Shown piece after piece: positions 13,644 to 41,602 of a stretch of DNA of 64,000 nucleotides (its first letter is position 1; each line of letters begins with the position of its first letter). Below the pieces are notes generated by a model that was not told the origin of the DNA, did no database searches, and saw nothing but the letters and a program-made list of their open reading frames with translations. Position numbers and translations under genes: made by a program. This stretch comes from an uncultured Fibrobacteria bacterium (GTDB lineage Bacteria; Fibrobacterota; Fibrobacteria; UBA11236), in assembly GCA_963716395.1 (NCBI GenBank), contig OY970309.1, forward strand, positions 352,001 through 416,000, written 5' to 3'.

Positions 13644-13702
13644 TCAACGCACCTCTCCGTTGCAAAACGAAACAACATTCTAAATTTTTTGATGAATACC
13701 CA

Positions 13703-13731
13703 TTGACTTGTCGTTTTTTGTTGATTAAATT
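13703..13731 (+). promoter_or_regulatory. sigma70-type promoter of groESL
   Basis: TTGACT-N17-TAAATT. Confidence 0.65.
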
Positions 13732-13742
13732 CGCATCGCGCT

Positions 13743-13769
13743 TTAGCAATCTTCCGCTTCGTCTGCCAG
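13743..13769 (+). promoter_or_regulatory. Degenerate CIRCE element (HrcA operator)
   Basis: TTAGCAATC-N9-GTCTGCCAG versus consensus TTAGCACTC-N9-GAGTGCTAA (8/9 and 5/9); just downstream of the groES promoter; hrcA is in the same cluster. Confidence 0.65.
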
Positions 13770-13828
13770 CCAATCGGCGGTTGCGAGCAGAAGAAAAGAA
13801 CAAACCAGATAGAGAAGGAGCAGCAACC

Positions 13829-15806
<1,978 letters not shown>

Positions 15807-27035: not shown

Positions 27036-30000
27036 GTGATTGAAATCGCCGTGAACCGCAAACTTTTCTTTCGTCTTTTCCTGCTTTCGGCCCTGGCCTT
27101 TTTCGCCTGGACTTGTAATGTGTCGGATTCGGGCAGCGACACCTTTTTGACCCTTACGGTGGGCGACTCGCTCAAAACTTCGGCGGGGAAGTACGACTCC
27201 ATCCAAATCAAGGTGGCGGTGATTAAAAACTCCGACACCACCTATCAGAAAATTGTGTTCCACGGAACCTACCACGACTCTTCGCAACTGCAAAACCTTG
27301 ACCTGGGACACTTGCCTTCCAATGACTTCACCATCATCCTCTCCGGTTATCGCAATGGATCGTTGGCCGTCATGTTGGAGTTACCCTTCAGCAACGGCCA
27401 GCCCGGCACTCCCAAGGTCGACACTTTGATTGTGCCGCCGGATACCACCCATCCAGGCAACTACCAGCCGCGGATAGGGCTGGCCCCGCCGGACAGCGGT
27501 AACACTTTGTTCCATGCCGTCGAAGGCAAAACCCTGGCTTTCCGTGTCATGGCCCAAGACACCGACGCCAAAGACAGCGCCATTTTGCTTTCCCTCGGCA
27601 ATGTGTTTCCGTTGGCTTGCGGAACCGCCGTGTATGACACGGTCACGGGTAACTTTACCCTCAAACCCGCTTTTGCCTGCGTGGACTCAGGCGGCGATTC
27701 GGTAAAGGCAACGTTGAACTTCGCCGCCAAAGACCGGGGCAATCCGCCGCTTTTCGACACCTTGAGCATACAGGTCATTGTGATGGATTCGAACAGTGCG
27801 CCCAAATGGAAACAGGATTCGGTAAGCGGTCTTGTGGGCAAGCAAGGCAAGCCCATGTCGCTTCGACTCGACAGCCTTTATCTGGGCGATGCCGAAGGCG
27901 ACTCGGTTACATTCACGCCCTCGCTGGGAATAATCACCTCGAACCCGCTGACTTGGTCTTTCACGCCCTCGTTCTCGGATTCGGGAGCAAAAACCGTGAT
28001 CCTTACTTCCACCGACAACCACAAGCCTCCGGCCTGGTCGCAACTGATTCTCAACCTCAGCATAGCCGATTCGATTCGGGCGTTGAAGGTGGTCATCACT
28101 TCGCCTGCCAATGGCTTTGTCACACGTGACAGTGTGATTACCGTGCATTGGAGCGTGAACGGCACGGCGCAAACCAGCGACACCACCGAGCATTTTTCCC
28201 AGGAAGGACCGAACGGCATCAAGCGTTCGTTTCGGGATTCCTTGACCGATAATACCGCTTCGGATTCCATCACCGTAACCTTGGATCGGACGCCACCCGA
28301 TAGACCCGTAGTCAGCGCCCCCACGCCGACCAATAACCCGCGTCCCACCTGGACATGGAAATCGGGCGGCGGTGGCGACGGGTATTTCCGCCATCGGCTC
28401 GACACGGCTTCGTTCGCCGATACACTGGGGGCGAAAGACACCTCGTTCACCCCCGGCGTTGATCTGACTGCCGGAACCCATGTCTTGAATGTCGAAGAGC
28501 GGGACGACGCCGGGAATTGGTCGGCCTTGGCGCAGGATTCGGTGCGTATCGTGCTGACCGGACCGTTGCTTGCCATCACCTCACCTCCGAATAATTACGT
28601 GACACGACAAGCCAGCGTGATCGTAACCTGGACATTGAACGGCACGGCGCAGACTCCTGTGACCAAAAGCTTGAATGCCGGGGCGAATGTGTTGAAGGTC
28701 ACCGGTCAGGACTCTGCGGGGAATCAAGCGTCGGATTCCATCACCGTAATCCGCGACACGGTTCCCCCCAATAAACCGGTGGTTACGGGTCCGGGGCTTA
28801 CGAGTAATCAGAAGCCGACGTGGCGCTGGAAATCCGGCGGCGACAGCGGCAGCGGATACTTTCGCTACCAGCTCGACAATGCCAGCCTGACCGATACGGT
28901 CGGGGTTACCGACACCGCGTACACGCCAGTATCCAATCTTTCCGAAGGCCGGCATGTGCTGTACATTGAAGAACGCGATGCAGTCGGCAATTGGTCGGCC
29001 ATGGATAGCAGCGGAATCGCCACCGTGGACATCACTCCCCCGGCGGTGCAGATCATTTCGCCGGTCGATAGTTTTGTGACTAATCAAGACAGTGTGCAGG
29101 TGCAATGGACAAGCAACGGCATCAATCAACCTGCCAATACCAAAACCTTGAGCGAAGGGGTGAATACCCTCACCGAATCCGCCACCGATTCAGCGGGCAA
29201 TACGGGATCGAAGTCAATCACCGTGACGCGGAGAAGCAATGTCTTGTTCGTGAACGCGGGGGCCAATGCCGGCGGCGATGGAAATTCCTGGACGTCGGCC
29301 TACAAGTATTTGCAAACGGCCCTCGCGCGCTCGGCCAGCGGCCAACAAATTTGGATCGCCAAGGGGACCTATAAACCGGCTCTGGGAGTCACGGGAATCG
29401 ATACGAATACCTATGACACGAGTTTTGTCATGAAAAGCGGGGTGACTTGGCTGGGAGGATTCAAAGGCACGGAGAACGATAGCGGGAAACGGGATTGGAA
29501 TAACAACCAAAGCATTCTGACCGGGGAAAGGGGTAATCCCAATGACAGCACGGATAATTTGGGCACGATTGTTTTAGGAGCAGACAACGCGACTATGGAT
29601 GGGCTGGTGGTTGAGAAGGGTGGTGTTGCAATAGGCACAATGGATTGCCGCGGTAAATCGCCACAAATTACGAATTGTGTTTTTCAAAATAATGCAGGTA
29701 ATGCTGTGATAAACGCCGACCTCAACGCGAATCCTGCAATTAAAAATTGTGGTTTTATAAATAATCAAACAAGTCAGGGAGCAATCTACTTTCTCGGGTC
29801 TCCAACTATTAGTTTTTGCAAATTTCAATATAACAGCGCTGGAGTTGCAGGTGGGGCAATTAGGGGGGAAGGATCCACGATTATTACTTCCTCGATTTTT
29901 GAGGGCAATCAAGCCGGTGAGGGCGGGGCAATAACGATCGAAGATGCGCCAACAGAAACATTTACTATTGCCAATTGCATCTTTATCCGAAACAGTGCAA

Positions 30001-30611
30001 ACGATGGCGGAGCGATTTATGCCTCGGGACTTGGGACTTTCACGAATGATGTCTTTATACAAAACTCTGGAAAGGAATTTGGAGGCGCCGTTAACGCATC
30101 TGCAGTAAACAACGATTTTAGTAATTTTACTAATTGTGCATTTTTCGGTAATGGATCGATTTCGACTTACGGCGGAGCGATTTATGAAACCGGAACTTTA
30201 ATTATCCAAAATTCAATACTATATAACGACACAGCGAATTTTGGGACTGAGATTTTCGCTCAAAGTTTCGAGTGGGATTCCATTACCATCGGTTTCTCGG
30301 ACCTTTCGGGTGGTATTGCCGCTATTGCGGGAGACACGAGTGACATTTCCGGTACTACCCACTATGTAAATGGCATTCCGGTAACGGCCGGCCCCGGCAA
30401 TCTCAACGTGAATCCATCTTTCAAGAACTCCGCGTCACCCGCCGGCCCAGACGGCAAATACCTTACCTCCGACGACGGCTATAATCTCTCTTCCGGCAGC
30501 CCGTGCATCAATGCAGGAAACTCCAGCGCTTCGGGCCTGCCGGCCACCGACATCACCGGCGCGCCGCGCGTGCAAGGCGCCAACGTCGACATGGGCGCCT
30601 ACGAGCAATAG
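27036..30611 (+). CDS. Large surface lipoprotein: Ig-like repeats plus right-handed beta-helix plus DMGAYE (choice-of-anchor Q-like) end
   Basis: Hydrophobic N-terminus ending FAWTC; repeated ITSP..VT..W..NG / SDSITV..D..PP / WKSGG / EERD.GNWS units; GNSWTSAY.YLQ.AL, GGAI/FxxN repeats, RVQGANVDMGAYEQ; exact start uncertain. Confidence 0.8.
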   Translation: MIEIAVNRKLFFRLFLLSALAFFAWTCNVSDSGSDTFLTLTVGDSLKTSAGKYDSIQIKVAVIKNSDTTYQKIVFHGTYHDSSQLQNLDLGHLPSNDFTIILSGYRNGSLAVMLELPFSNGQPGTPKVDTLIVPPDTTHPGNYQPRIGLAPPDSGNTLFHAVEGKTLAFRVMAQDTDAKDSAILLSLGNVFPLACGTAVYDTVTGNFTLKPAFACVDSGGDSVKATLNFAAKDRGNPPLFDTLSIQVIVMDSNSAPKWKQDSVSGLVGKQGKPMSLRLDSLYLGDAEGDSVTFTPSLGIITSNPLTWSFTPSFSDSGAKTVILTSTDNHKPPAWSQLILNLSIADSIRALKVVITSPANGFVTRDSVITVHWSVNGTAQTSDTTEHFSQEGPNGIKRSFRDSLTDNTASDSITVTLDRTPPDRPVVSAPTPTNNPRPTWTWKSGGGGDGYFRHRLDTASFADTLGAKDTSFTPGVDLTAGTHVLNVEERDDAGNWSALAQDSVRIVLTGPLLAITSPPNNYVTRQASVIVTWTLNGTAQTPVTKSLNAGANVLKVTGQDSAGNQASDSITVIRDTVPPNKPVVTGPGLTSNQKPTWRWKSGGDSGSGYFRYQLDNASLTDTVGVTDTAYTPVSNLSEGRHVLYIEERDAVGNWSAMDSSGIATVDITPPAVQIISPVDSFVTNQDSVQVQWTSNGINQPANTKTLSEGVNTLTESATDSAGNTGSKSITVTRRSNVLFVNAGANAGGDGNSWTSAYKYLQTALARSASGQQIWIAKGTYKPALGVTGIDTNTYDTSFVMKSGVTWLGGFKGTENDSGKRDWNNNQSILTGERGNPNDSTDNLGTIVLGADNATMDGLVVEKGGVAIGTMDCRGKSPQITNCVFQNNAGNAVINADLNANPAIKNCGFINNQTSQGAIYFLGSPTISFCKFQYNSAGVAGGAIRGEGSTIITSSIFEGNQAGEGGAITIEDAPTETFTIANCIFIRNSANDGGAIYASGLGTFTNDVFIQNSGKEFGGAVNASAVNNDFSNFTNCAFFGNGSISTYGGAIYETGTLIIQNSILYNDTANFGTEIFAQSFEWDSITIGFSDLSGGIAAIAGDTSDISGTTHYVNGIPVTAGPGNLNVNPSFKNSASPAGPDGKYLTSDDGYNLSSGSPCINAGNSSASGLPATDITGAPRVQGANVDMGAYEQ

Positions 30612-30700
30612 CATTTGCGGGCGCCGCTCATTGCGTCGACCAAAGTTTCGACCAGCATCAATTATCGACCAAAGATTGATTGCGGAGCAAATTCCAAAAC

Positions 30701-31499
30701 CTATTGCAGCAACTTTTCCACGGTTTGTGGGTCGGCCTCCTGATTGCTCACTTCGAAGCCGTCTTTATAAACTTCGTGCAAGACGCGATGTTTATGCGTG
30801 ACGCTGTCCGGCTTGGCATCGAATAGCCACGTTTCTCCTGTTCCATTCACCACCTTGCCGGTGGATTTTCCCGCGGGTGAAAAAGTTTCATAGAAAACCA
30901 CCTTCGCGTCTTCCTTTGAGGGCTTCGGCTGATACGCTGTTTTTTCCTTTAATCGCAAAACTCCGTTTGGAAAGTATTCTTCATCCTCAATCACTTCACC
31001 TTTATGACATTGCGCCACCAATTTCTTATTGCCGTTGGGCCACCATTCCTGCCATAAGCCCTCTTCTTGGCCCGAGTCGTTGTAGTTTTTGATTAAAGAT
31101 GGGTCGGCTCATTGGGGAATCGTAAAATGTTGTGCGAACTCCGATCTGGATATCCATTTACATGATGGGTTTTTTCGACCAACGATATTTCCAAGTGAAT
31201 CCCAGACCAAACAATTTCCGTTTTTTTTCCCGTCCACATAGAAGCAACTGTCGTGTTTTATCCATCGGACAGGCTATCGAATTTGTATTGTTAAAGCTCA
31301 TGGATATCCTGATTAGCCGGCCATTTTGATATTCGGATACGAATATCGTATTCGTTGTCTGAGTTTACAGTTAACACGTAATTCAACTGTTCCATATGGT
31401 TTTGAATATGTTGCCCTGGTTTTTACCGCATTCATATTCATCCGCATGAAAATAGATTTGAAAAAGAAGACGCGATAATCATGCAATGCTGCGATTCAT
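30701..31499 (-). pseudogene. MORN/YwqK-like partner gene copy 4 (Y-type C-half), 5' half frame-disrupted
   Basis: 3' half near-identical to copy 2; 5' half carries recognisable YECGK..YGTVELRVNCKL remnants broken by indels (decay or consensus error). Confidence 0.7.
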
Positions 31500-31868
31500 A
31501 AACCACTCAAATTCCATTTTCGAATTTGTTTCATGAAGGTCATGCAAATATCTGCATAAAAACGTCGTTTCGTCTTTATCTCGATATTTATCTGTTGCGT
31601 TTAAGATTTTTTACGAGTCCCGTAATTATTTAACAACTGTTATCCCCGCCTTCAGCGCATCCGCTTTTTGTTTTACAGACACCGGATCTTCATCACCCGA
31701 TCCGGGTGGCGGCAAAGGCAATTGCGACACAAAGCGCAACACCCATTTGAGAATGTGATTGCCGTTCGGAGATTTCGAAGCCCCCTCGGTAGATTTCAAT
31801 ATATCAAGTATGACCGGAAAATCCGCATCTTCGCGTGTTTGCATCAAGGTGATGATGGCCTGGGTCAA
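31496..31868 (-). pseudogene. Orphan effector C-terminal cassette 4
   Basis: Constant QAIITLMQTRED..KADALKAG block, then a divergent AT-rich tail interrupted by a stop at 31626. Confidence 0.65.
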
Positions 31869-31870
31869 AT

Positions 31871-32653
31871 CTATTGCAGCAACTTTTCCACGGTTTTGGC
31901 GTCGGCCTGTGCGTTGTGGACTCGCAGGCCATTCTTGAAGATTTCTTGCTCCACCCTATAACGCTTTAACGTGCTATCCGGCTCAGCGCTGAAAGTCCAC
32001 AATTCACCGGTTCCATTTATCACCTTTCCAGTTGCTTTTCCGGTCGGGGAAAATGATTCGGAAAAAATTAGGCGCTGGTTCCCTTTACTCGGATCTTCTT
32101 CGCGGGTCGCCTGTTCTTTCAGACGCAAATTACCGTTGGGAAAATACTCTTCGTCCGAAATAATTAACCCTTTATGACATTGCGCCACCAATTTCTTATT
32201 GCCATTGGGCCACCATTCCTGCCATAAGCCCTCTTCTTGACCCGAGTCGTTGTAGTTTTTGATTAAAGATGGGTGGCCGGGGGAGTAAAATATTCTCCCT
32301 CCTTCCAACTTGAATGTCCGTTTACGATAATTATTTACGCAACGATTCTTGACCCAAGCGTATCCCAGACTAACCAATTTCCTTCTTTTTTCCCGTTAAC
32401 ATAAAAACTGCTGTCATTTTTTTTTCATCGCACTATCAAGATTCATATTGAAAACCCATTATATGCTTATCGCCTTTTGAATTCGGATACGCATTATGTT
32501 ATCTGGAATTAGTTTACAATCGACACGTAAGTTCAACTTTTCCATAGGACGTGGATTTTTAATATTTTTCACTCGCACAGCATGTAATATTGCATCCGTA
32601 AACAGTTTGAAGATAGAGCGATAACACAACAAAAACATAAACCTTACTTTCAT
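31871..32653 (-). pseudogene. MORN/YwqK-like partner gene copy 3 (X-type C-half), 5' half frame-disrupted
   Basis: Starts ATGAAAGTAAGG like copy 2; multiple indels; intact 3' half near-identical to copy 1. Confidence 0.7.
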
Positions 32654-33005
32654 ATTCTATCCCATTTTTTGAAAGTAGATAATGCAAATTCGGATAAAAA
32701 CTTCTCGTATTCATTTCGCTCTGCTTGTTGGTCATCGAACATTTCCCTTCGCGAGCTCCGAAATTTTCAATTCTCTTTATCCCCGCCTTCAGGGCATCCG
32801 CTTTTTGTTTTACAGACACCGGATCTTCATCACCCGATCCGGGCGGCGGCAAAGGCAATTGCGACACAAAGCGCAACACCCATTTGAGAATGTGATTGCC
32901 GTTCGGAGATTTCGAAGCCCCCTCGGTAGATTTCAATATATCAAGTATGACCGGAAAATCCGCATCTTCGCGTGTTTGCATCAAGGTGATGATGGCCTGG
33001 GCCAA
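32650..33005 (-). pseudogene. Orphan effector C-terminal cassette 3
   Basis: Constant block plus variable tail IKRIENFGAREGK..LLSKNGIE; stop slipped out of frame. Confidence 0.65.
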
Positions 33006-33007
33006 AC

Positions 33008-33769
33008 CTATTGCAGCAACTTTTCCACGGTTTGTGAGTCGGCCTCCTGATTGCTCACTTCGAAGCCGTCTTTATAAACTTCGTGCAAGACGCGATGTTT
33101 GTGCGTGACGCTGTCCGGCTTGGCATCGAATAGCCACGTTTCTCCTGTTCCATTCACCACCCTGCCGGTAGATTTTCCCGCGGGTGAAAAAGTTTCATAG
33201 AAAACCACCTTCGCGTCTTCCTTTGAGGGCTTCGGCTGATACGCTGTTTTTTCCTTTAATCGCAAAACTCCGTTTGGAAAGTATTCTTCATCCTCAATCA
33301 CTTCACCTTTATGACATTGCGCCACCAATTTCTTATTGCCATTGGGCCACCATTCCTGCCATAAGCCCTCTTCTTGGCCGGAGTCGTTGTAGTTTTTGAT
33401 TAAAGATGGGTGGCCGGGGGAAAAATATTCCTCCCTCCTTCCAACTTGAATGCCGTTATGATAATTATTTAAGCACGATTCTTGACCCAAGCTATCCCAG
33501 CACTTACCAATTCCTTCTTTTTTCCCGTTAAGATAAAAACTGCTGTCCATTTTTTTTTGAGTCGCGCTATCAAGATTCATAGAAAACCCATTAATCTTAT
33601 CGCCTTTGAATTCGGCTACCCACATGTTACCTGGAATTAGTTTGCAATCGACGCGAAGCTCAACTTCTCCATAGGAACGGTGGACTTTTTGTTTTTCACC
33701 GCAAGTGTATTTTGCATGTGAATAGTTTGAGATGACTAACACAACAAAAACATAAAGCCTTACTTTCAT
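33008..33769 (-). CDS. Secreted MORN-variant repeat protein (YwqK-like), putative immunity/partner protein, copy 2 (intact)
   Basis: 253 aa; signal peptide MKVRLYVFVVLVISNYSHA; repeats Y.NGKKEG..W, NYHNGIQVG, EEGLWQEWWPNG, EEYFPNG. Confidence 0.8.
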   Translation of the reverse strand: MKVRLYVFVVLVISNYSHAKYTCGEKQKVHRSYGEVELRVDCKLIPGNMWVAEFKGDKINGFSMNLDSATQKKMDSSFYLNGKKEGIGKCWDSLGQESCLNNYHNGIQVGRREEYFSPGHPSLIKNYNDSGQEEGLWQEWWPNGNKKLVAQCHKGEVIEDEEYFPNGVLRLKEKTAYQPKPSKEDAKVVFYETFSPAGKSTGRVVNGTGETWLFDAKPDSVTHKHRVLHEVYKDGFEVSNQEADSQTVEKLLQ

Positions 33770-34119
33770 AAGCTTCCTATTCCATTTTCGGTAAGTAGAT
33801 TATCAAATTCGGATACAAATTCTGGATTAGCCGCCTGCTTGTGGTCAGCGGACCATTTACCCCTCGCGGCTCCAAATTCCCAGATTCTCTTTACCCCCGC
33901 CTTCAGCGCATCCGCTTTTTGTTTTACAGACACCGGATCTTCATCACCCGATCCGGGTGGCGGCAAAGGCAATTGCGACACAAAGCGCAACACCCATTTG
34001 AGAATGTGATTGCCGTTCGGTGATTTCGAAGCCCCCTCGGTAGATTTCAATATATCGAGTATGACCGGAAAATCCGCATCTTCGCGTGTTTGCATCAAGG
34101 TGATGATGGCTTGGGCCAA
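33766..34119 (-). CDS. Orphan effector C-terminal cassette 2 (intact 117-codon frame)
   Basis: Constant block plus variable tail VKRIWEFGAARGKWSADHKQAANPEFVSEFDNLLTENGIGSL; ATGA overlap with the partner gene; TTG start without an evident RBS. Confidence 0.65.
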   Translation of the reverse strand: MAQAIITLMQTREDADFPVILDILKSTEGASKSPNGNHILKWVLRFVSQLPLPPPGSGDEDPVSVKQKADALKAGVKRIWEFGAARGKWSADHKQAANPEFVSEFDNLLTENGIGSL

Positions 34120-34121
34120 AT

Positions 34122-34887
34122 CTATTGCAGCAACTTTTCCACGGTTTTGGCGTCGGCCTGTGCGTTGTGGACTCGCAGGCCATTCTTGAAGATTTCTTGC
34201 TCCACCCTATAACGCTTTAACGTGCTATCCGGCTCAGCGCTGAAAGTCCATAATTCACCGGTTCCATTTATCACCTTTCCAGTTGCTTTTCCGGTCGGGG
34301 AAAATGATTCGGAAAAAATTAGGCGCTGGTTCCCTTTACTCGGATCTTCTTCGCGGGTCGCCTGTTCTTTCAGACGCAAATTACCGTTGGGAAAATACTC
34401 TTCGTCCGAAATAATTAACCCTTTATGACATTGCGCCACCAATTTCTTATTGCCATTGGGCCACCATTCCTGCCATAAGCCCTCTTCTTGACCCGAGTCG
34501 TTGTAGTTTTTGATTAAAGATGGGTGGCCGGGGGAATAATAATTTTCATCCTTGCCGATTTGGATTCCGTTTCGATAATTCTTTCGAGCAACGATACTTT
34601 CCAAGAGAATCCCAGAACAATACAATCCCATTTTCTTTTCCCATTAATATAAAAACTGCTGTCTTTTTTTCTCCATAGACTATCATAGATTAACTTGCAA
34701 CCCATTCTAATTTCTCCTTTATACTCGGAAACGAAATTACATGTTATCTGAATTAATTCGCAATCGAACTCTAAATTCAACTTTCACCATATAGCGTTTT
34801 TGAACTTTTCTTTTTCTCCGCAAGTATAAGCGCATGCGAAAGCCAAGATGAATAACACATATCAAAAACAGAACAGCCAATTACCAT
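34122..34887 (-). pseudogene. MORN/YwqK-like partner gene copy 1 (X-type C-half), 5' half frame-disrupted
   Basis: ATG at 34887 overlaps the effector end; YTCGEK, DCELI and KDSSFYINGK remnants lie in different frames. Confidence 0.7.
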
Positions 34888-37557
34888 AAGCTTCCTATTT
34901 CATTTTCGGTCAGTAGATTATCTGAATTCGATCAAAAAATCTGGCATTCGCTTCTTGTGGTTCATCTGTTTTCATCCAAATACCCCTTCAGCTGCTCCAA
35001 AATCCTTGAATCCGCTTTATCCCCGCCTTCAGCGCATCCGCTTTTTGTTTTACAGACACCGGATCTTCATCACCCGATCCGGGTGGCGGCAAAGGCAATT
35101 GCGACACAAAGCGCAACACCCATTTGAGAATGTGATTGCCGTTCGGTGATTTCGAAGCCCCCTCGGTAGATTTCAATATATCGAGTATGACCGGAAAATC
35201 CGCATCTTCGCGTGTTTGCATCAAGGTGATGATGGCTTGGGCCAAACCTTCGGGAGGAATATTGCGATACATGGTTTGACGCAGAGAAGTACCCATAAAT
35301 CTTCTGCTTGATGGTTTTTATGTTGAGAAGGTGTTCCGACAGCCAGTGTCTTAAAGTCATGCACGGAATTAATGGCTGAATCCGCACCTTCCATAATCAC
35401 ATCTTCGCCCGCGGCTAGCATGGCAAAGGAATAGTCTTTATACGCCGTGAAGGCGTCGTCGATTTCCTTCACATAATGAGAATCGACGGAGTACAGCAAA
35501 TGCCCTAAAAATTCGCAGCCTTGCTTGGCGTCGACTTCCCAGGTCAAACCGCTGCCGCCGCCCAAACCCCAAGCCAGGCTCCAGGAAAAATGAAAACGAA
35601 ACCGCCCGGCACTATAACTCACATGAAAGGATAAGTCGGCCGCAGCGCCGGCCGTGCCTTTCAGTTCGCCTTCGATCTCGGCCAAATCCGCAAATTCTTG
35701 GTGCGCGTCCGGACTCCATTGCGCCGAGAAGGTTATGCCGGCCGTGCCTTGCACGCCGGCCACCGCATGCACATCGGCTTTGGCCGAGGTTTCACTTTTG
35801 GACTTCGATTCCTGGTTGTCGGATTTCTTGTCCTGGCTCAAATCCACGGCCGGAAAGGAAATGCAGCCGTTGGCCGATAGGCCCACGAACAATCCGGCTT
35901 TGCCGTCTATGCAGATCCGCACCAGGCATTGGCCGTTGTTCTCGCGGCAAGAATTTTGGGCTTTGGGATTGCACAAAGTGGGCAGCAAATCCAATCCTTC
36001 GCGTTGGGGCAGAAAAATCTTGCCTGAAAGTTTGCCCTCGAACAAGGCGAAAGACGCGTCGCCCGAAGCCTGCAAGGAAATTTTTTTGTCTTTGAGATCA
36101 AATTCCGCTTTTCCGCTATAACCCAGGGCATAACGCCCGAGGGCCGCTTCGGGGGTGAACTGAAACACATCGTTAGGGTTGGTTTTTTGATCCGACTTTC
36201 GCGGCCATTTCCAGACGCCGCCGACGACAGGTTCGCTTTCAAATAACTTGGCCTTCAGTTTCCCTTTCCATAGGGATTTGTCCTCCCCGTCACTTTTATT
36301 TCGCTTCAGCAATTTGTCCAGGCGCTTCTGCAAGGATTGATCCGAGGCCTTGACCCATTTCCCGGGAATTTTGCGGCCGTCTTGGCGCCAAGCCGCAGGC
36401 ACGTGCACGAAATCCGTCGGCTGGCCCCAACGCGGGTTTTTCTGCACGGTCAACAATTCATCCAAACCTTTTTCGACATCGCCGCCGGGCTTGCCTTCGA
36501 ACAGTGCTTCCCATTCTTTCCGCACCTTTTCCAATTCCTGGGTGCGCGCTTTGGAATCGCTTTGCTTCCAGGCCTCGGCGGTTTTGCCCCGCAAAGCCTG
36601 GGATTTGTTCACATGGGTCGAAAAGGCATTGAAATCCTCCTGCACTTCCAACATCAGGTATTCTTCATTCCGCGGACTATAAAAAATGCAGCCATCAAAA
36701 TCATCCTCGGTGATTTTCAACCCCCCGCTCTTCACTTCGAGCTTGGGCGAGGATTTTTTGGCCTTGAAGTAGAACGCATCGCCCGGCTTCAGCGGACCCA
36801 TGCGCGTTTTTTCCGGCACACACCATTTGGCCACGGCGGCATGGTCGTTGCGTTTTTTCCCCACGGTTCCGGAATAGGTATTCACCATTTCATCCGATCC
36901 GCTTTGGCCTTTGCGGAATAGTTCGAAATGAATGAGATCGCCGGGCATGAGCCCGTCGGTATCGACTTTGAAATGCACGATGTCGCCGATGGCGGCTTCG
37001 GTGAGAATGCTTTCTGAACTGCCGGGCTTGGTATCGTCTTCGATGTAAGCAAAACCCGGGTTCAAAAGCGCCGGTTCCGCCTCTTGGCTTTGCGCCGCCG
37101 CTGCATCCGCATCCTCGGACTTTTTCCTTTTAGGGTTGGCGCGGGCCAAGGCGCGCGTATAGGCCCAATACAGGGCGTGCACGGCATGGTCGAGATGCGA
37201 GCCGGGAGCGACCACCAGCCACGATTCCCGGTGGTGCGGAATTTCGTGGGCGAGAAGGTGAAGGGGAGAATCTTCGGGGCGGCGCGGATATCCCGTGACG
37301 CGGGGAGGTCCGGTGCGGTACAACTCTTCCAACTCGTTGCGGTTCAACCTTTGCAAAACCCTTTCGAGGTCCAGCTGCGTCTGGTTTTTCAGCCAGGCCG
37401 GGCATTCCTTCGGCAGCCTGGGACAGGGGCCGAGGTAGTGAAATCCCCGTATGCGCGGGCTGCCCCCCAGGTAACGGCAAGGTTTCCAGGGGCAATCTTT
37501 ACAGCAAGGCGCCGGGTAGGGCAAAGCTTCGGAAGGTTCGGAAGCGGTTTCAGGCAT
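34881..37557 (-). CDS. Large putative secreted effector / polymorphic toxin; frameshifts near 35350, 35290 and in the variable tail
   Basis: 778-aa open frame; a protein-like continuation (WLSEHLLNIKTIKQKIYG / TSLRQTMYRNIPPEGLAQAIITLMQTRED..NLLTENEIGSLW) in other frames leads into the repeated block; Gly/Ala-rich amphipathic beta region; function inferred from context. Confidence 0.6.
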
Positions 37558-37639: not shown

Positions 37640-39088
37640 TCAAAACCGGGGCGGGGCATCGGGCGGATCGGCTTCGAGGCTGGCTACGGGATCTTGGCAA
37701 TAATCGGCCGCGGTCCAGGCGCCGGGCCGGTGGTTGCCGCTTTCCCCCAATCCTCCGAAAGGCAGTTGGCCGCTGGCGCCGGTCAGCGGCCGGTTCCAAT
37801 TGATCACCCCGGCGCGCACTTCGGCGACAACGCGATCCCAAAGGTCGCGGTGCGCGCTGATCAGACCCGCGGAAAGCCCGAAGCGGGTGGCATTGGCGGC
37901 GGCGATGGCCGCATCGAAATCGCGCACGCGCATCACCTGCAACAGCGGACCGAAAAACTCTTCGTCGGGACGGTCGGACGCGTCCGTCACGTCGATCAAT
38001 CCCGGCGTCAACAAGGCTGCGCTGCGATCGGATCGGGTGAGAGGCACCAACGGTCTCCCACCCGCGGCCCGCAAGCGCGCCTCGGCGGCGAGCAAAGCGT
38101 CGGCCGCCGCCGCATGGATCAGCGGACCCAGGTAAGGCTCGGGCCGATCCGCAGCGCCGCCGACCGTAACCTGCCCGATACGCTCGATCAAGGCTGCGAT
38201 CATCGCTTCGCCCGCCGGGCCGGCGGGAACGATCAAACGCCGGGCGCAGGTGCAGCGTTGGCCCGAAGTGATGTAGGCCGAGGCCACGATGAGTTCGGCC
38301 GCGGCCACGAGATCGGCAGGCTCCCAGACGACCAGCGGATTGTTGCCGCCCAATTCCAGCGCCAGGATTTTTCCCGGCGTCTCCACGAACAGCCGGTTCA
38401 ACGCCACGCCGGCGCGATGGCTGCCGGTGAACAGCAGCCCGTCGATGGCGGCGCGGGCCAAGGCTTCACCCGTTTCGCGCCCACCCGGAACCAGGTTCAA
38501 CACCCCGGCCGGCAAGCCGGCTTCTTCCCACAGCCGCGCGCACAGTTCGGCCGTGCCCGGCGTGAACTCGCTGGGTTTGAACACCACGGCATTGCCTGCC
38601 AGCAAGGCCGGGATGAGATGGCTGTGCGGCAAATGCGCCGGCAAATTGAAGGGACCGAGTACGGCCAACACGCCATGCGGACGATGGCGCAGCACGCCGC
38701 GAAACCCCGCCAGGGTCAAATGCTTTTCTCCGGCGCGTTCCGCTTGCGCGGCCAGGGAGTGATCGGTTTTGGCGATCAAGGTGTCGACTTCCTGCAACGC
38801 CTCCCAATGCGGTTTCCCGGTTTCGTCGGAAACGCGCTCGGCCAATTGCGACCGCGCTTGACGCACGGCCGTTTGAAAGCGTCGCAAAACCTGTATCCGT
38901 GCTTCCCATCCGTTACGGAACCAAAGCGGCTGCGCGGCCCGGGCCGCGGACACAGCGGCATCGACATCGGCGGGATGGGCGGCGCGGCCTTGCCAGATCA
39001 CATCCTGGGTCATGGGATTGCGCGACGCGAACATTTCGCCCCGGCCCTCGCGCCAAACTCCGCCCAGATAGAGTTGCCCCGAATTCAT
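37640..39088 (-). CDS. astD: Succinylglutamate semialdehyde dehydrogenase
   Basis: HRPHGVLAVLGPFNLPAHLP, FKPSE, LFTGS, LELGGNNP, SGQRCTCARRL, EEFFGP, SGNHRPGA..AADYC. Confidence 0.95.
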   Translation of the reverse strand: MNSGQLYLGGVWREGRGEMFASRNPMTQDVIWQGRAAHPADVDAAVSAARAAQPLWFRNGWEARIQVLRRFQTAVRQARSQLAERVSDETGKPHWEALQEVDTLIAKTDHSLAAQAERAGEKHLTLAGFRGVLRHRPHGVLAVLGPFNLPAHLPHSHLIPALLAGNAVVFKPSEFTPGTAELCARLWEEAGLPAGVLNLVPGGRETGEALARAAIDGLLFTGSHRAGVALNRLFVETPGKILALELGGNNPLVVWEPADLVAAAELIVASAYITSGQRCTCARRLIVPAGPAGEAMIAALIERIGQVTVGGAADRPEPYLGPLIHAAAADALLAAEARLRAAGGRPLVPLTRSDRSAALLTPGLIDVTDASDRPDEEFFGPLLQVMRVRDFDAAIAAANATRFGLSAGLISAHRDLWDRVVAEVRAGVINWNRPLTGASGQLPFGGLGESGNHRPGAWTAADYCQDPVASLEADPPDAPPRF

Positions 39089-40147
39089 AATTCCTGCAAG
39101 GTCGCGCCGGGCCGCAGGCCCACGGCGCGCACCGTGTCGCCGACCTTGACGTGTAGGGCGCGCGCGGCCCAGCTTTCGATGTGCACGCCGCCGGGCACCA
39201 AAAGAAAGGGTGCCGCCACGGCGCGAAACCCTTGCGCCCGGGTGTTGGAAAGCAAATGCTTTTCGGCATCGAGCCGGCCGCGGATAATCCGGTCCACCGG
39301 CAAGGCGCGGCTGGCTTGCACCGTGCGGATTTTTTCCAGGGCGCAGCTTACCACCGGCCCGCCTTCGAAAATGTCGACCATGCCAGCGGCCCGAAAGCCT
39401 TCGTCCGTCAACAACTTCAGGGCCGGCTCGGTTTCGGGATGCACCTTGCCGATCGCGGCCTGTGCGGCTTTGGGCAGCAGCGGAAGGTAAATCGGGTGCC
39501 GCGGCATCAATTCGGCGATGAAACGTTTGTCTTTCATCACCAGGCGATCCGCATGTTCCAAATCCATGCCGAAAAAATGGCGGCCCAAGGCTTCCCAAAA
39601 CGGCGAGCGGCCGCGGGCGTCGATGCGGCCGCGCATTTCGGCCAGCACCACGGGATCGAAAAAGCGGCGGTGATCGGCCATGAACAAAAATCGGCCCAAC
39701 GACAGCAGGCGACCGGCCGTGCCGTGGCGGCGGTCGGGTTCGAGAAACAAGGTGCCGATTTCCGAAGGGCCGTTGTGTTCGGCCAGCAGCTTGAGCACGC
39801 GCACCTGCTTGCGCACGCCAAGCGTGGCCGAGGCATGGGTTACCGTGTCGACGCGGTAGGCGTAGAACGGCTCAAAGCCGCCCACCTTGGAAACGATGCC
39901 CGATGTGCCCACCACGCGCCGCGCGGCCAGAATCTTCGAGCACGAAGAGATACGTCTCGCCGCCGGGCTTTTCCGCCATGCGCTCGAAACCGCGCCGCGA
40001 ATCGCCGATGCGTCCGCGCAGCACGCCTTCGTCCTGCGGCAAGGTGGTGAGGCCCACGCCCGCCGAGGCGCTGAGCCGCAGCAGGGCCCGGAGATCACGG
40101 GCCTCGACCGAGCGTAACACATAAGGTACGTCTGGTTTCCGCGTCAT
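39085..40147 (-). CDS. astA: Arginine N-succinyltransferase with a single +1 frameshift near 39931
   Basis: N-part (GVGLTTLP..YLFVLED) and C-part (VVGTSGI, SEIGTLFL, AEMRG, SPFW, DIFEGGP) lie in different frames; removing one T after GAT joins them. Confidence 0.88.
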
Positions 40148-41532
40148 GCGCAGCGGTCCAGGGCCGCTTCCAGCAGCTCGAGCACGCAATCGACGTCGTG
40201 GTCTTCGACCCCGCCCACGGGCGGCAGAAAGCGCACGCGCGCCGGATCGCCGCCGGCCGTGAAGACGATGACGCCGAGATCGAACAGCGTGCGGCACACC
40301 CGCGCGGTGATTGCGGCCGAACCGTCGAAGGGGGTGAAGGCCACCAGCGCGCCCAGGCCATAGGGGCCGCGCACCCATTGCGGATGCCTGCGCTCCAAAT
40401 CCGCCAGGCCCTCGCGCAGGCGCGAGGAAACCCGCATGATACGGCCGTCGGGGCCGAGATAGCCCTCGTGCAGCAGGGCTTTGACCACGCGCAACCCCGC
40501 GCGGATGGCCGAGGTCGAAGCCGTGTAAGTCTGGCTGATGAGGCCGGGTTTGGGGTTCTGGGCGGCCGTGAACAAGGTGGCGCAGGCCTGGGTCATTTTT
40601 CCCAAGGTTACGATGTCGACGTATGGGTCGAGCCCGAAATGCTGGAAGGCGAATAATTCGTCGGTGCGGCCGAAGGTTTGAATTTCATCGGCGATGATGA
40701 CGACACCGGCCCGGCGCGCGGTTTCGAGCAAGGGCACAAAGAATGCGCGCGTGCCCGCCGCATAGCCGCCGGCTTCGCCTTGAATCCACTCGAAGATCAT
40801 GGCGGCATGGGCGTGGGGATGGCGTTCGAGATGGCCGCGCAGCATCGCAACGGCTTCTTCGCTGGACGCCTCGGGCCGGACGGGATCGTAGAACGGCACA
40901 TAGTCCACCGGCAGGTTACGGGGCAGGCCTTCGCGGTAGGCGGGCTTGTCGGTGATTTGCGCCAGGTCCAAAGTGCGGCCCGCGAAGTTGTGGCGAAAGG
41001 CCAGAATCCGACTCGCAGGATGGCGCTTTTGGAAAGCGATTTTCACGGCGTTTTCATTCGCCATGGCGCCGCTGGTGGTCATTACGCCATGGGCAAACTG
41101 GGCGCCGCGACGATTCGCGCCCTGTACCAGGGATTCCAAGAATTCCAATCCGTCACGGTTTTGCTGCAAATGGCCCTGCATCACGGTGTTTTGCAGGGCC
41201 GCGTCGACGCCAGCCTCCAGCAGATCGGGATGGTTATGGCCGAGAAAATGCACGCCGATGCCGGCGATGAAATCGTATTTCACGCTGCCGTCGGCCAGCT
41301 CGACCAAGCATCCGCGGCCGAATCCGCTGCCGAGATACGGGTAATAGGTCGGGCTGCCGCGCACGGCATTGAGCCGGGCCAGGGCCTCTTCGTATTCCAG
41401 CTTGCGTTCGCTGTGCGGGGGACGCACGCCGGTTACGGCCCGCTGCGCGTCGGCCAAAGCCGCCCGCAACAGGCTTTTGGCCTGAACTACGCGCGCATCA
41501 CATGCCAGTTTTTCCGCGTTCAAGGGCTGCAT
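40144..41532 (-). CDS. Class-III PLP aminotransferase (succinyl/acetylornithine aminotransferase, AstC role)
   Basis: YDFIAGIGVHFLGHNHP, SGAMANENAVK, FAGRT, IADEIQTFGRT, DIVTLGK; located in the ast operon. Confidence 0.85.
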   Translation of the reverse strand: MQPLNAEKLACDARVVQAKSLLRAALADAQRAVTGVRPPHSERKLEYEEALARLNAVRGSPTYYPYLGSGFGRGCLVELADGSVKYDFIAGIGVHFLGHNHPDLLEAGVDAALQNTVMQGHLQQNRDGLEFLESLVQGANRRGAQFAHGVMTTSGAMANENAVKIAFQKRHPASRILAFRHNFAGRTLDLAQITDKPAYREGLPRNLPVDYVPFYDPVRPEASSEEAVAMLRGHLERHPHAHAAMIFEWIQGEAGGYAAGTRAFFVPLLETARRAGVVIIADEIQTFGRTDELFAFQHFGLDPYVDIVTLGKMTQACATLFTAAQNPKPGLISQTYTASTSAIRAGLRVVKALLHEGYLGPDGRIMRVSSRLREGLADLERRHPQWVRGPYGLGALVAFTPFDGSAAITARVCRTLFDLGVIVFTAGGDPARVRFLPPVGGVEDHDVDCVLELLEAALDRCA

Positions 41533-41564
41533 GGGCACCCCGTATTTTAACAAACGCGATTCGC

Positions 41565-41602
41565 CTTCCACCCGATTTCGCCCGCGGCCAACTTCATCAG
41601 CA
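41565..41602. repeat. 38-bp direct repeat, copy A (duplicate of the M20 hydrolase 3' end)
   Basis: CTTCCACCCGATTTCGCCCGCGGCCAACTTCATCAGCA, identical to 42203-42240. Confidence 0.92.

Follow-up and report, generated by a model that had tools for sequence, protein, structure and literature searches.

What is encoded where a large gene is followed by four tandem units, each of which repeats the gene's penultimate segment and then diverges across its short C-terminal tip and half of a neighbouring gene? The question is posed by locus A, which lies on the minus strand of a 64,000-nucleotide stretch (hereafter, the window; contig OY970309.1, positions 352,001 to 416,000) from an uncultured Fibrobacteria bacterium whose genome is one contig of 3.75 Mb. 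The answer we favour, and hold to be probable, is a type VI secretion system (T6SS) effector-immunity locus, perhaps inactive, that carries orphan modules in a tandem array. A preliminary description of the same DNA had presented it as a candidate new system, which overstates the case: a T6SS-type effector/immunity pair with orphan modules falls in a known class.

Anatomy of the array

The large gene gives an open reading frame (ORF) of 778 amino acids (aa) at 37557-35224 on the minus strand, with a conserved family core from about aa 290, and it is followed by four ~1.1-kb units, as the preliminary description had stated. The units were recovered from the ORF list and three-frame translation and by a repeat finder, which returned a 300-nt repeat containing the shared segment (hereafter, the arm) in four copies starting at 31640, 32777, 33891 and 35017 (spacing 1137/1114/1126 bp), with further repeat families spanning the remainder of each unit, including its 3' part. 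The unit joined to the large gene is labeled A0 and the orphans A1-A3, and the units of a second array, locus B, are numbered from B0 onward. Each unit consists of the arm, a variable block (the tip plus the N-half of a partner gene) and a 3' part (a mid-gene segment plus the C-half of the partner gene). The block boundaries were taken from an alignment of the 12 full units of the genome (4 from locus A and 8 from locus B), cut at the start of the shared segment.

The arm codes for AQAIITLMQTRED..KADALKAG, is 222 bp long and is 97-100% identical with no indels in all 12 copies. The variable block codes for the last ~40 aa of the large protein (the tip), then for the signal peptide and N-half of a MORN/YwqK-like protein (the partner), the start of the partner gene overlapping the stop codon of the tip. 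Across the 12 units, the tip block (~116-131 bp) is 34-100% identical, mostly 45-69%, and the partner N-half block (~360-390 bp) 47-97%. A mid-gene segment of ~106-115 bp is again 95-100% identical (with unit B2 as the exception at 82-84%), and the C-half block (~270-300 bp) occurs as two alleles, 57-63% identical across types and 91-100% inside a type; A0 and A2 are of type I, A1 and A3 of type II. This order of arm, co-inherited tip and partner N-half, and second homology segment is as first described, and the unit alignment bears out that the variants are homologous alleles and not unrelated toxin domains. A "conserved C-half" of ~410 bp had also been proposed, which holds for the ~106-115 bp alike in all copies but not for the other ~270-300 bp, where the two alleles alternate. 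The variable blocks of A0-A3 (~480-525 bp; 35017-34530, 33891-33416, 32777-32279 and 31640-31116) agree within a few bases with those given before (34535-35020, 33421-33894, 32284-32780 and 31106-31643). The G+C fraction (GC) of the arms is 0.51, and it drops to 0.34-0.39 in the variable blocks (0.38-0.39 by the unit alignment); the array as one piece has 0.44, versus 0.60 for the genome.

Read along the minus strand, the arm of A0 (35239-35018) leads into a variable block in which both the tip and the MORN-like N-half are frame-broken, followed by a type I 3' part (34114-34529, stop codon 34122-34124). In A1 (arm 34113-33892), the arm-plus-tip ORF is intact (33766-34119, 117 aa counted from an in-frame TTG) and is the only tip ORF of expected length in the window. 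The same unit holds the only intact partner ORF of the four (33769-33008, 253 aa, with a signal peptide and a type II C-half), whose ATG overlaps the TGA of the tip. A2 (arm 32999-32778) has lost the tip stop, its MORN N-half is frame-broken, and its 3' part is type I (31863-32278), while in A3 (arm 31862-31641) both tip and N-half are frame-broken and a type II 3' part (30698-31115) ends the array. A promoter and terminator scan gave a result at chance level.

The large gene had been thought to run on into the array. Arm and tip are coded there, but the ORF stops at 35224, before the arm, which reads in another frame (35317-34991), so that two frame changes fall within ~110 nt. Both lie in the 3' part of a stretch at 35257-35441 (minus strand), which an intact relative, P0004, reads through continuously. 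In an alignment with locus B, this stretch of ~185 nt, directly 5' of the identical arms, drops to ~60% identity (L009:14700-14880 in locus B) between identical DNA on both sides; it amounts to a third variable block, carried by no orphan.

That the whole array is an assembly artefact was considered and rejected: the units are distinct, their variable blocks differing by 30-66%, which argues against a collapsed or expanded repeat. Two low-depth soil-metagenome contigs cross unit junctions (32779-33335 with 4 other letters and 34000-34150 with 0), and they lend weak support because they possibly derive from the assembly's own sample. Four soil-metagenome runs contain 5-20% of the sampled words, and no RNA run was among those listed. 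The contigs are short and low-depth, and neither the frame breaks of the large gene nor the link of a cassette to it is within their reach. Loose contig ends at 35009 carry, by eye, B6-like and B3/B4-like tips, which are ordinary locus B copies.

The large protein and its exported partner

For the large protein, Pfam and NCBIfam gave no hit, and a word-based search returned only the genome's own copies and one weak match. At E<=1e-3, a profile search against 1.84 billion representatives recovered 651 cluster representatives, of which 180 also passed E<=1e-30; their conserved core spans profile positions ~290-835 and lies behind variable N-termini. Among the members scanned, P0060 and P0126 are fused to VgrG (P0126 also to PAAR) and P0036 to Hcp. 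The domains found in 32 long members were Phage_GPD (2), Hcp (1), PAAR (1), PG_binding_1 (7), OmpA (6) and LysM, SLT, Amidase_2 and M23 (one each), and P0059 had a sub-threshold VasX_N match (25.9 bits, cut-off 27). On the Cronobacter plasmids NZ_CP017664.1 and NZ_CP101600.1, a homologue (~27% identity to family member P0005, E 9e-30 and 4e-22, tblastn) lies directly after vgrG inside a T6SS cluster, and two SUMF1-family genes follow downstream, the one translated opening with a lipoprotein signal.

The genome itself encodes TssC and Hcp (3.32 Mb), VgrG (2.68 Mb) and PAAR (0.055 and 1.18 Mb). Of 41 related genomes, 25 are TssC-positive, and these include every one of the 14 that matched the profile; none of the 16 TssC-negative genomes had a match, in counts where kin are not independent and some matches span only part of the profile. 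Because family members are fused to VgrG, Hcp, PAAR or peptidoglycan-binding domains, or follow vgrG in Cronobacter, the large protein is most likely a T6SS effector acting in the periplasm or envelope of the target cell.

The large protein has no signal peptide, and its core of ~540 aa contains segments that are Gly/Ala-rich and moderately hydrophobic. The N-terminal ~175 aa (37033-37557) are Cys-rich (CCKDCPWKPC...) and 89-91% identical across the four paralogues of the genome, with the next 125 aa only 39% identical to paralogues C and D and everything after the N-terminal domain at 39-44%. This N-terminal domain was found nowhere else in the genome and had no Pfam hit, and it would fit a candidate conserved loading domain for the T6SS. 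In an alignment of 87 family members, the tip occurs in 84-97% of them and keeps conserved hydrophobic positions, and is therefore not an add-on. The effector profile matched nothing among PDB sequences (best E 0.44), the ESM Atlas clusters nearest to the locus C protein (score 0.84) and to P0005 (0.97) are named "hypothetical protein", and the family cluster members have no informative names. We also considered a cargo of the type IX secretion system and rejected it from a reading of the sequence: a signal peptide is lacking, and the C-terminus looks helical by sequence pattern, not like a beta domain like the C-terminal domain of such cargo.

The partner is a protein of ~250 aa, members having a signal peptide and two conserved Cys near the mature N-terminus. 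Its family is small (19 hits), with 4 named "antitoxin YwqK" by the Joint Genome Institute (JGI) and 6 with a precomputed MORN_2 (PF07661) hit, and the partner profile found only weak matches to the SET7/9 MORN-like domain in the PDB (E about 0.03). A MORN-like gene stands directly after the effector in 4/4 loci of the genome and immediately 3' of it in 4/7 of the relatives' loci with downstream DNA (an eighth locus stopped at a contig edge). Since periplasmic immunity proteins are usually exported and coded immediately after an effector that is itself Sec-independent, the partner is most likely the cognate periplasmic immunity protein, a putative role. Action outside the cytoplasm, which the preliminary description had proposed, agrees with the signal peptide and conserved Cys pair of the partner and with the peptidoglycan-binding and hydrolase domains of the large-protein homologues.

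Paralogous loci and recombination

The genome holds four paralogous loci, A-D, at 0.39, 1.13, 1.82 and 3.24 Mb. The arm has 13 genomic copies, 4 in the window and 9 at 1.1176-1.1267 Mb (locus B), the last one partial. The large protein of locus B is 97% identical to that of locus A and likewise frame-broken, and the two genes align over 2195 nt at 99.4% identity with no gap. Loci C and D (44% protein identity) have uninterrupted large ORFs of 884 and 865 aa, that of locus D ending before the tip at a frame shift, and they repeat the same design with an arm of ~615-635 bp (93-95%) and a variable block of ~425-445 bp. At all four loci, the variable block at the large gene is frame-broken or cut short, and the first orphan (tip plus partner) is fully intact (A0/A1 in the window, B0/B1 in L009, L010:7545-10022 and L011:7700-10229). 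Locus D also contains two unrelated ORFs (L011:11933-13580) of 295 aa (with hydrophobic segments) and 256 aa, without a Pfam hit, which sit between a broken orphan module and the last intact MORN-like gene (13692-14486).

The orphan junctions are identical in 12/12 cases (partner stop codon, a few bases, then the arm), from which we conclude that the array grew by duplicating one unit and not by repeated independent insertions. After every partner stop there is a TTG in frame with the orphan. Synonymous divergence (dS) is 0.02-0.04 in the arms and saturated in the tips; the arms have therefore been homogenised and the cassettes are old alleles. Distances between tips correlate with those between N-halves (Mantel r=0.79, p=1e-4), and neither correlates with the C-half (r=-0.09 and 0.01), in line with the co-variation that the preliminary description had reported for tip and N-half. 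The same independence is seen in a single pair, B3 and B4, which have identical tips (100%) and nearly identical N-halves (97%) with different C-half types, so recombination at the mid-gene segment has occurred. The variable block of A3 resembles that of B2 (tip 70%, N-half 87% identity), and C-half types alternate in 9/10 adjacent pairs (shuffle p=0.02).

A search of 11 same-genus genomes did not recover the effector. These genomes are of 1.9-2.7 Mb, well below the 3.75 Mb of the present one, and TssC is encoded by 1/11. In a metagenome collection, an exact 32-mer of the arm had no match and a MORN alignment query found no relative, and a genome-contig search with one alignment gave no match.

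Competing readings, known systems and neighbouring genes

Under the effector-immunity reading, the product of the large gene would be a cargo effector made in the cytoplasm, from an unnamed but widespread family whose core most likely acts on the envelope from the target-cell periplasm, and the small gene overlapping its 3' end would encode a Sec-exported, disulfide-bonded MORN/YwqK-like putative immunity protein. One unit (arm, tip and immunity gene) would have been duplicated into an array, which was then diversified by homologous recombination anchored in the 222-bp arm and in the mid-gene segment of ~110 bp, so that the last ~40 aa of the effector and the immunity N-half would be inherited as one cassette, independent of the immunity C-half. 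Gene conversion would keep the arms near-identical. We infer that the immunity N-half recognises the tip, and that specificity might change when an orphan recombines into the expressed gene.

Several observations weigh against this account. None of the four loci in the genome adjoins a vgrG, PAAR, hcp or adaptor gene. Frame breaks interrupt the large genes at loci A and B, and in 4/4 loci the partner gene that directly follows is broken too, even at locus C with its intact effector ORF, which would be odd for an essential cognate immunity gene. The window partner proteins score 15.8-17 bits against MORN_2 (PF07661), under the Pfam cut-off of 29.6. Co-variation of tip and N-half is expected even without functional coupling, since the two are physically contiguous. 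There is no sign of positive selection, the ratio of nonsynonymous to synonymous divergence (dN/dS) being <1 in the 6/21 pairs for which it is computable, and for the tip it is uninformative because dS is saturated. The search for homologous arrays suggested in the preliminary description turned up the three further loci of the same genome but no tandem copies in 40 related genomes, mostly fragmented assemblies unable to hold such repeats, and the comparison accordingly lends switching no support.

One alternative is a decaying relic, which we judge unlikely. On this view, unequal crossing-over in an island gained by horizontal transfer would have left the array as a by-product, by now a graveyard of pseudogenes in which at most one or two immunity genes (A1, B1) are kept against relatives' effectors. 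Besides the broken large genes of loci A and B, this draws on the partner genes, of which 2/12 (A1 and B1) are intact across the two arrays, on the tip ORFs, of which 7/12 have the expected 114-117 aa, on the AT-richness of the array relative to the genome, and on the 11 same-genus genomes in which the effector was not found. Loci C and D, however, retain intact effector ORFs, the arms and 2.2 kb of the large genes are without indels, and the spectrum of lesions is not that of ordinary decay. Over the conserved 3' part (387 bp) of the partner gene, the 12 copies (window 30698-35017 and L009:5600-14700) show 28 insertion events, 0 deletions and 66 substitutions relative to the in-frame consensus of their type, the insertions being confined to 6 copies and most of them lying outside homopolymers. 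Bacterial pseudogene decay is deletion-biased, and an insertion-only spectrum therefore suggests consensus error or a heterogeneous population.

An argument for inheritance, however, is that B2 and B6, and likewise B0 and B2, have some insertions in common. The extra bases at 34597 and 34640, exactly where the frame of the A0 partner jumps, are missing from a metagenome contig of ~90% identity, but as a different allele this contig settles nothing. Whether the frameshifts are long-read consensus errors over repeated or heterogeneous DNA or are real is, in our view, about evenly balanced, and the insertion-only differences are a consensus artefact or the product of an unusual mutational process. 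As the expression copy and 3/4 partner genes of locus A are broken in the assembly, current function of this locus is doubtful unless the frameshifts are assembly errors. The insertion-only frameshifts are, in any case, a caution for annotating such arrays from long-read assemblies.

Programmed switching would go further than the effector-immunity reading, with the orphans as a working library from which RecA-type conversion moves the cassette of tip and immunity N-half into the expressed copy, altering toxin-immunity (kin) specificity at a useful rate, as in pilS/pilE. We think this improbable. The two short homogenised anchors around an old, highly diverged cassette speak for it, as do the same design in two diverged paralogue families of one genome, the existence of recombinants (B3/B4 and A3/B2), the 9/10 alternation of C-half types, which would limit deletions between neighbouring units, and the fully intact first orphan at 4/4 loci. 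Exchange at the level of single molecules was not seen in the low-depth metagenome contigs, however, the expressed copies of loci A and B are broken 5' of the arm, a lesion beyond repair by any orphan, most orphan immunity halves are frame-broken, and no arrays were found in the 40 relatives searched. The boldest version holds that the cassette library co-converts a ~40-aa C-terminal "address" and the N-terminal recognition half of the immunity protein as one sub-genic unit, re-keying both, and its chances seem to us slim. If true, it would bring the logic of antigenic variation to bacterial kin discrimination, and the insertion-only "frameshifts" and mixed copies would be the footprint of an actively shuffling population and not of decay.

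It is very improbable that the MORN-like protein is not an immunity protein but is exported for some other purpose, for example as a surface or periplasmic receptor or as a recognition module that works with a giant Ig-like lipoprotein coded nearby, the tip serving as a docking peptide: 4/4 giant Ig-like paralogues of the genome do adjoin T6SS-type genes (3 effector loci and 1 PAAR gene), Ig-like giants stand beside the effector in 4/7 of the relatives' loci, and the partner of locus C is broken beside an intact effector, but the producer's effector (no signal peptide) and partner (signal peptide) occupy different compartments, which is the logic of periplasmic immunity, periplasmic lipoprotein genes come after the Proteobacterial homologues, where immunity genes usually lie, and orphan arrays are typical of immunity genes (PMC5361080).

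As a probable effector-immunity locus, locus A belongs with the polymorphic toxin loci that carry orphan toxin-tip and immunity modules, namely Rhs, contact-dependent growth inhibition (CDI) and the T6SS arrays of Vibrio cholerae, and the kinship to CDI/Rhs-type orphan modules drawn in the preliminary description holds. In Rhs and CDI loci, a conserved 5' part of the toxin gene is accompanied by promoter-less 3' fragments with a short arm, each followed by its cognate immunity gene, and recombination at the arm can place an orphan into the expressed gene; each such orphan brings a complete toxin domain, often an unrelated one, and a complete immunity gene. Locus A resembles them in that its orphan 3' fragments have their arm in common with the full gene and an immunity-type gene comes after every one of them. 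It differs in that no whole unrelated toxin domains are exchanged, the tips being ~40 aa, alignable and with conserved hydrophobic positions, in that the toxin core lies outside the cassette at loci A and B, and in that the second anchor lies within the immunity gene. Reading the sequence revealed no Rhs/YD repeats and no VENN/PxxxxDPxGL-type motif, although no motif search was made. Sources on the Rhs/CDI orphan modules, which join a toxin C-terminal (CT) region to an immunity gene, are two earlier papers (Koskiniemi et al. 2014, PMC3967940; Zhang et al. 2012, PMC3482391).

The V. cholerae T6SS clusters hold arrays of orphan immunity genes and effector fragments (Kirchberger et al. 2017, PMC5361080). 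That paper reports that entire effector-immunity modules, differing in type, are acquired by displacement, and it proposes homology-facilitated illegitimate recombination as the route. The clusters share with locus A a recombination-driven mosaic structure, and retained immunity is proposed as protection against kin (PMC5361080). By comparison with what is reported there, the units of locus A are of one family with identical junctions and two C-half alleles and are not heterogeneous independent insertions, each orphan keeps the 222-bp effector arm, and the swapped block ends inside the immunity gene.

The Cronobacter loci have an effector of the same family with genes for exported proteins directly downstream; unlike at locus A, those genes are of the SUMF1/FGE family and not MORN-like, no arms or tip fragments are annotated between them, and the loci lie inside a T6SS cluster. 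In Bacillus subtilis, YwqJ-YwqK is an LXG toxin/antitoxin pair and YwqK is cytoplasmic. The partner in the window is similar in being a MORN-variant repeat protein beside a polymorphic toxin, of a kind annotated as antitoxin, and differs from B. subtilis YwqK in its signal peptide, its conserved Cys pair and its MORN_2 score below cut-off. "YwqK family antitoxin" annotations near vgrG also occur in Paraburkholderia (PMC8356804).

A further likeness is to systems of surface-antigen variation. pilE/pilS of Neisseria and vlsE of Borrelia consist of a full gene and tandem partial copies and serve to evade host immunity by varying a surface antigen, with conversion proven experimentally. Locus A likewise has one full-length gene and partial copies with conserved segments around variable ones, and, by analogy, two overlapping genes would be co-converted here.

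What sets the locus apart is the sub-genic swap block, the homology of the alleles, the second anchor inside the immunity gene, the identical junctions and the uncharacterised effector and immunity families; a limited keyword-based literature search did not find this arrangement in print. If the effector-immunity reading is true, an effector family of 651 representatives without a Pfam or NCBIfam model would gain its first functional frame, as periplasm-acting, and this family, which occurs in Pseudomonadota, Cronobacter plasmids included, would have lineage-specific immunity families. The specificity of immunity would then reside in two places, a short element at the C-terminus of the toxin and a single half of the immunity protein, giving a compact, testable model for toxin-immunity diversification with an unchanged toxic core.

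The biology of T6SS in Fibrobacterota is hardly described, and the repeated pairing of the effector with giant Ig-like lipoproteins is a further lead. In the window, the gene of this giant Ig-like/beta-helix lipoprotein (27036-30611, plus strand; ORF list, domain scan and tblastn) is convergent on the array. Its family has exactly four paralogues in the genome by tblastn, the other copies being at 1177454-1180570 (minus strand), from 1812707 onwards (L010:689-4952) and from 3231675 onwards (L011:657-4241). Loci A, C and D each have one of the four as a neighbour; the remaining one is about 440 bp away from a PAAR-domain gene. In the relatives, the giants that flank the effector homologue carry Big_2, Big_13, PKD and cadherin-like domains. 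The giant lipoprotein may be a T6SS-associated adhesin.

On the other side, 5' of the effector, the region 37640-41571 (minus strand, GC 0.655) carries what are, by eye, genes resembling an arginine succinyltransferase pathway (aldehyde dehydrogenase, N-succinyltransferase and aminotransferase), and the lower-GC island starts directly after them.

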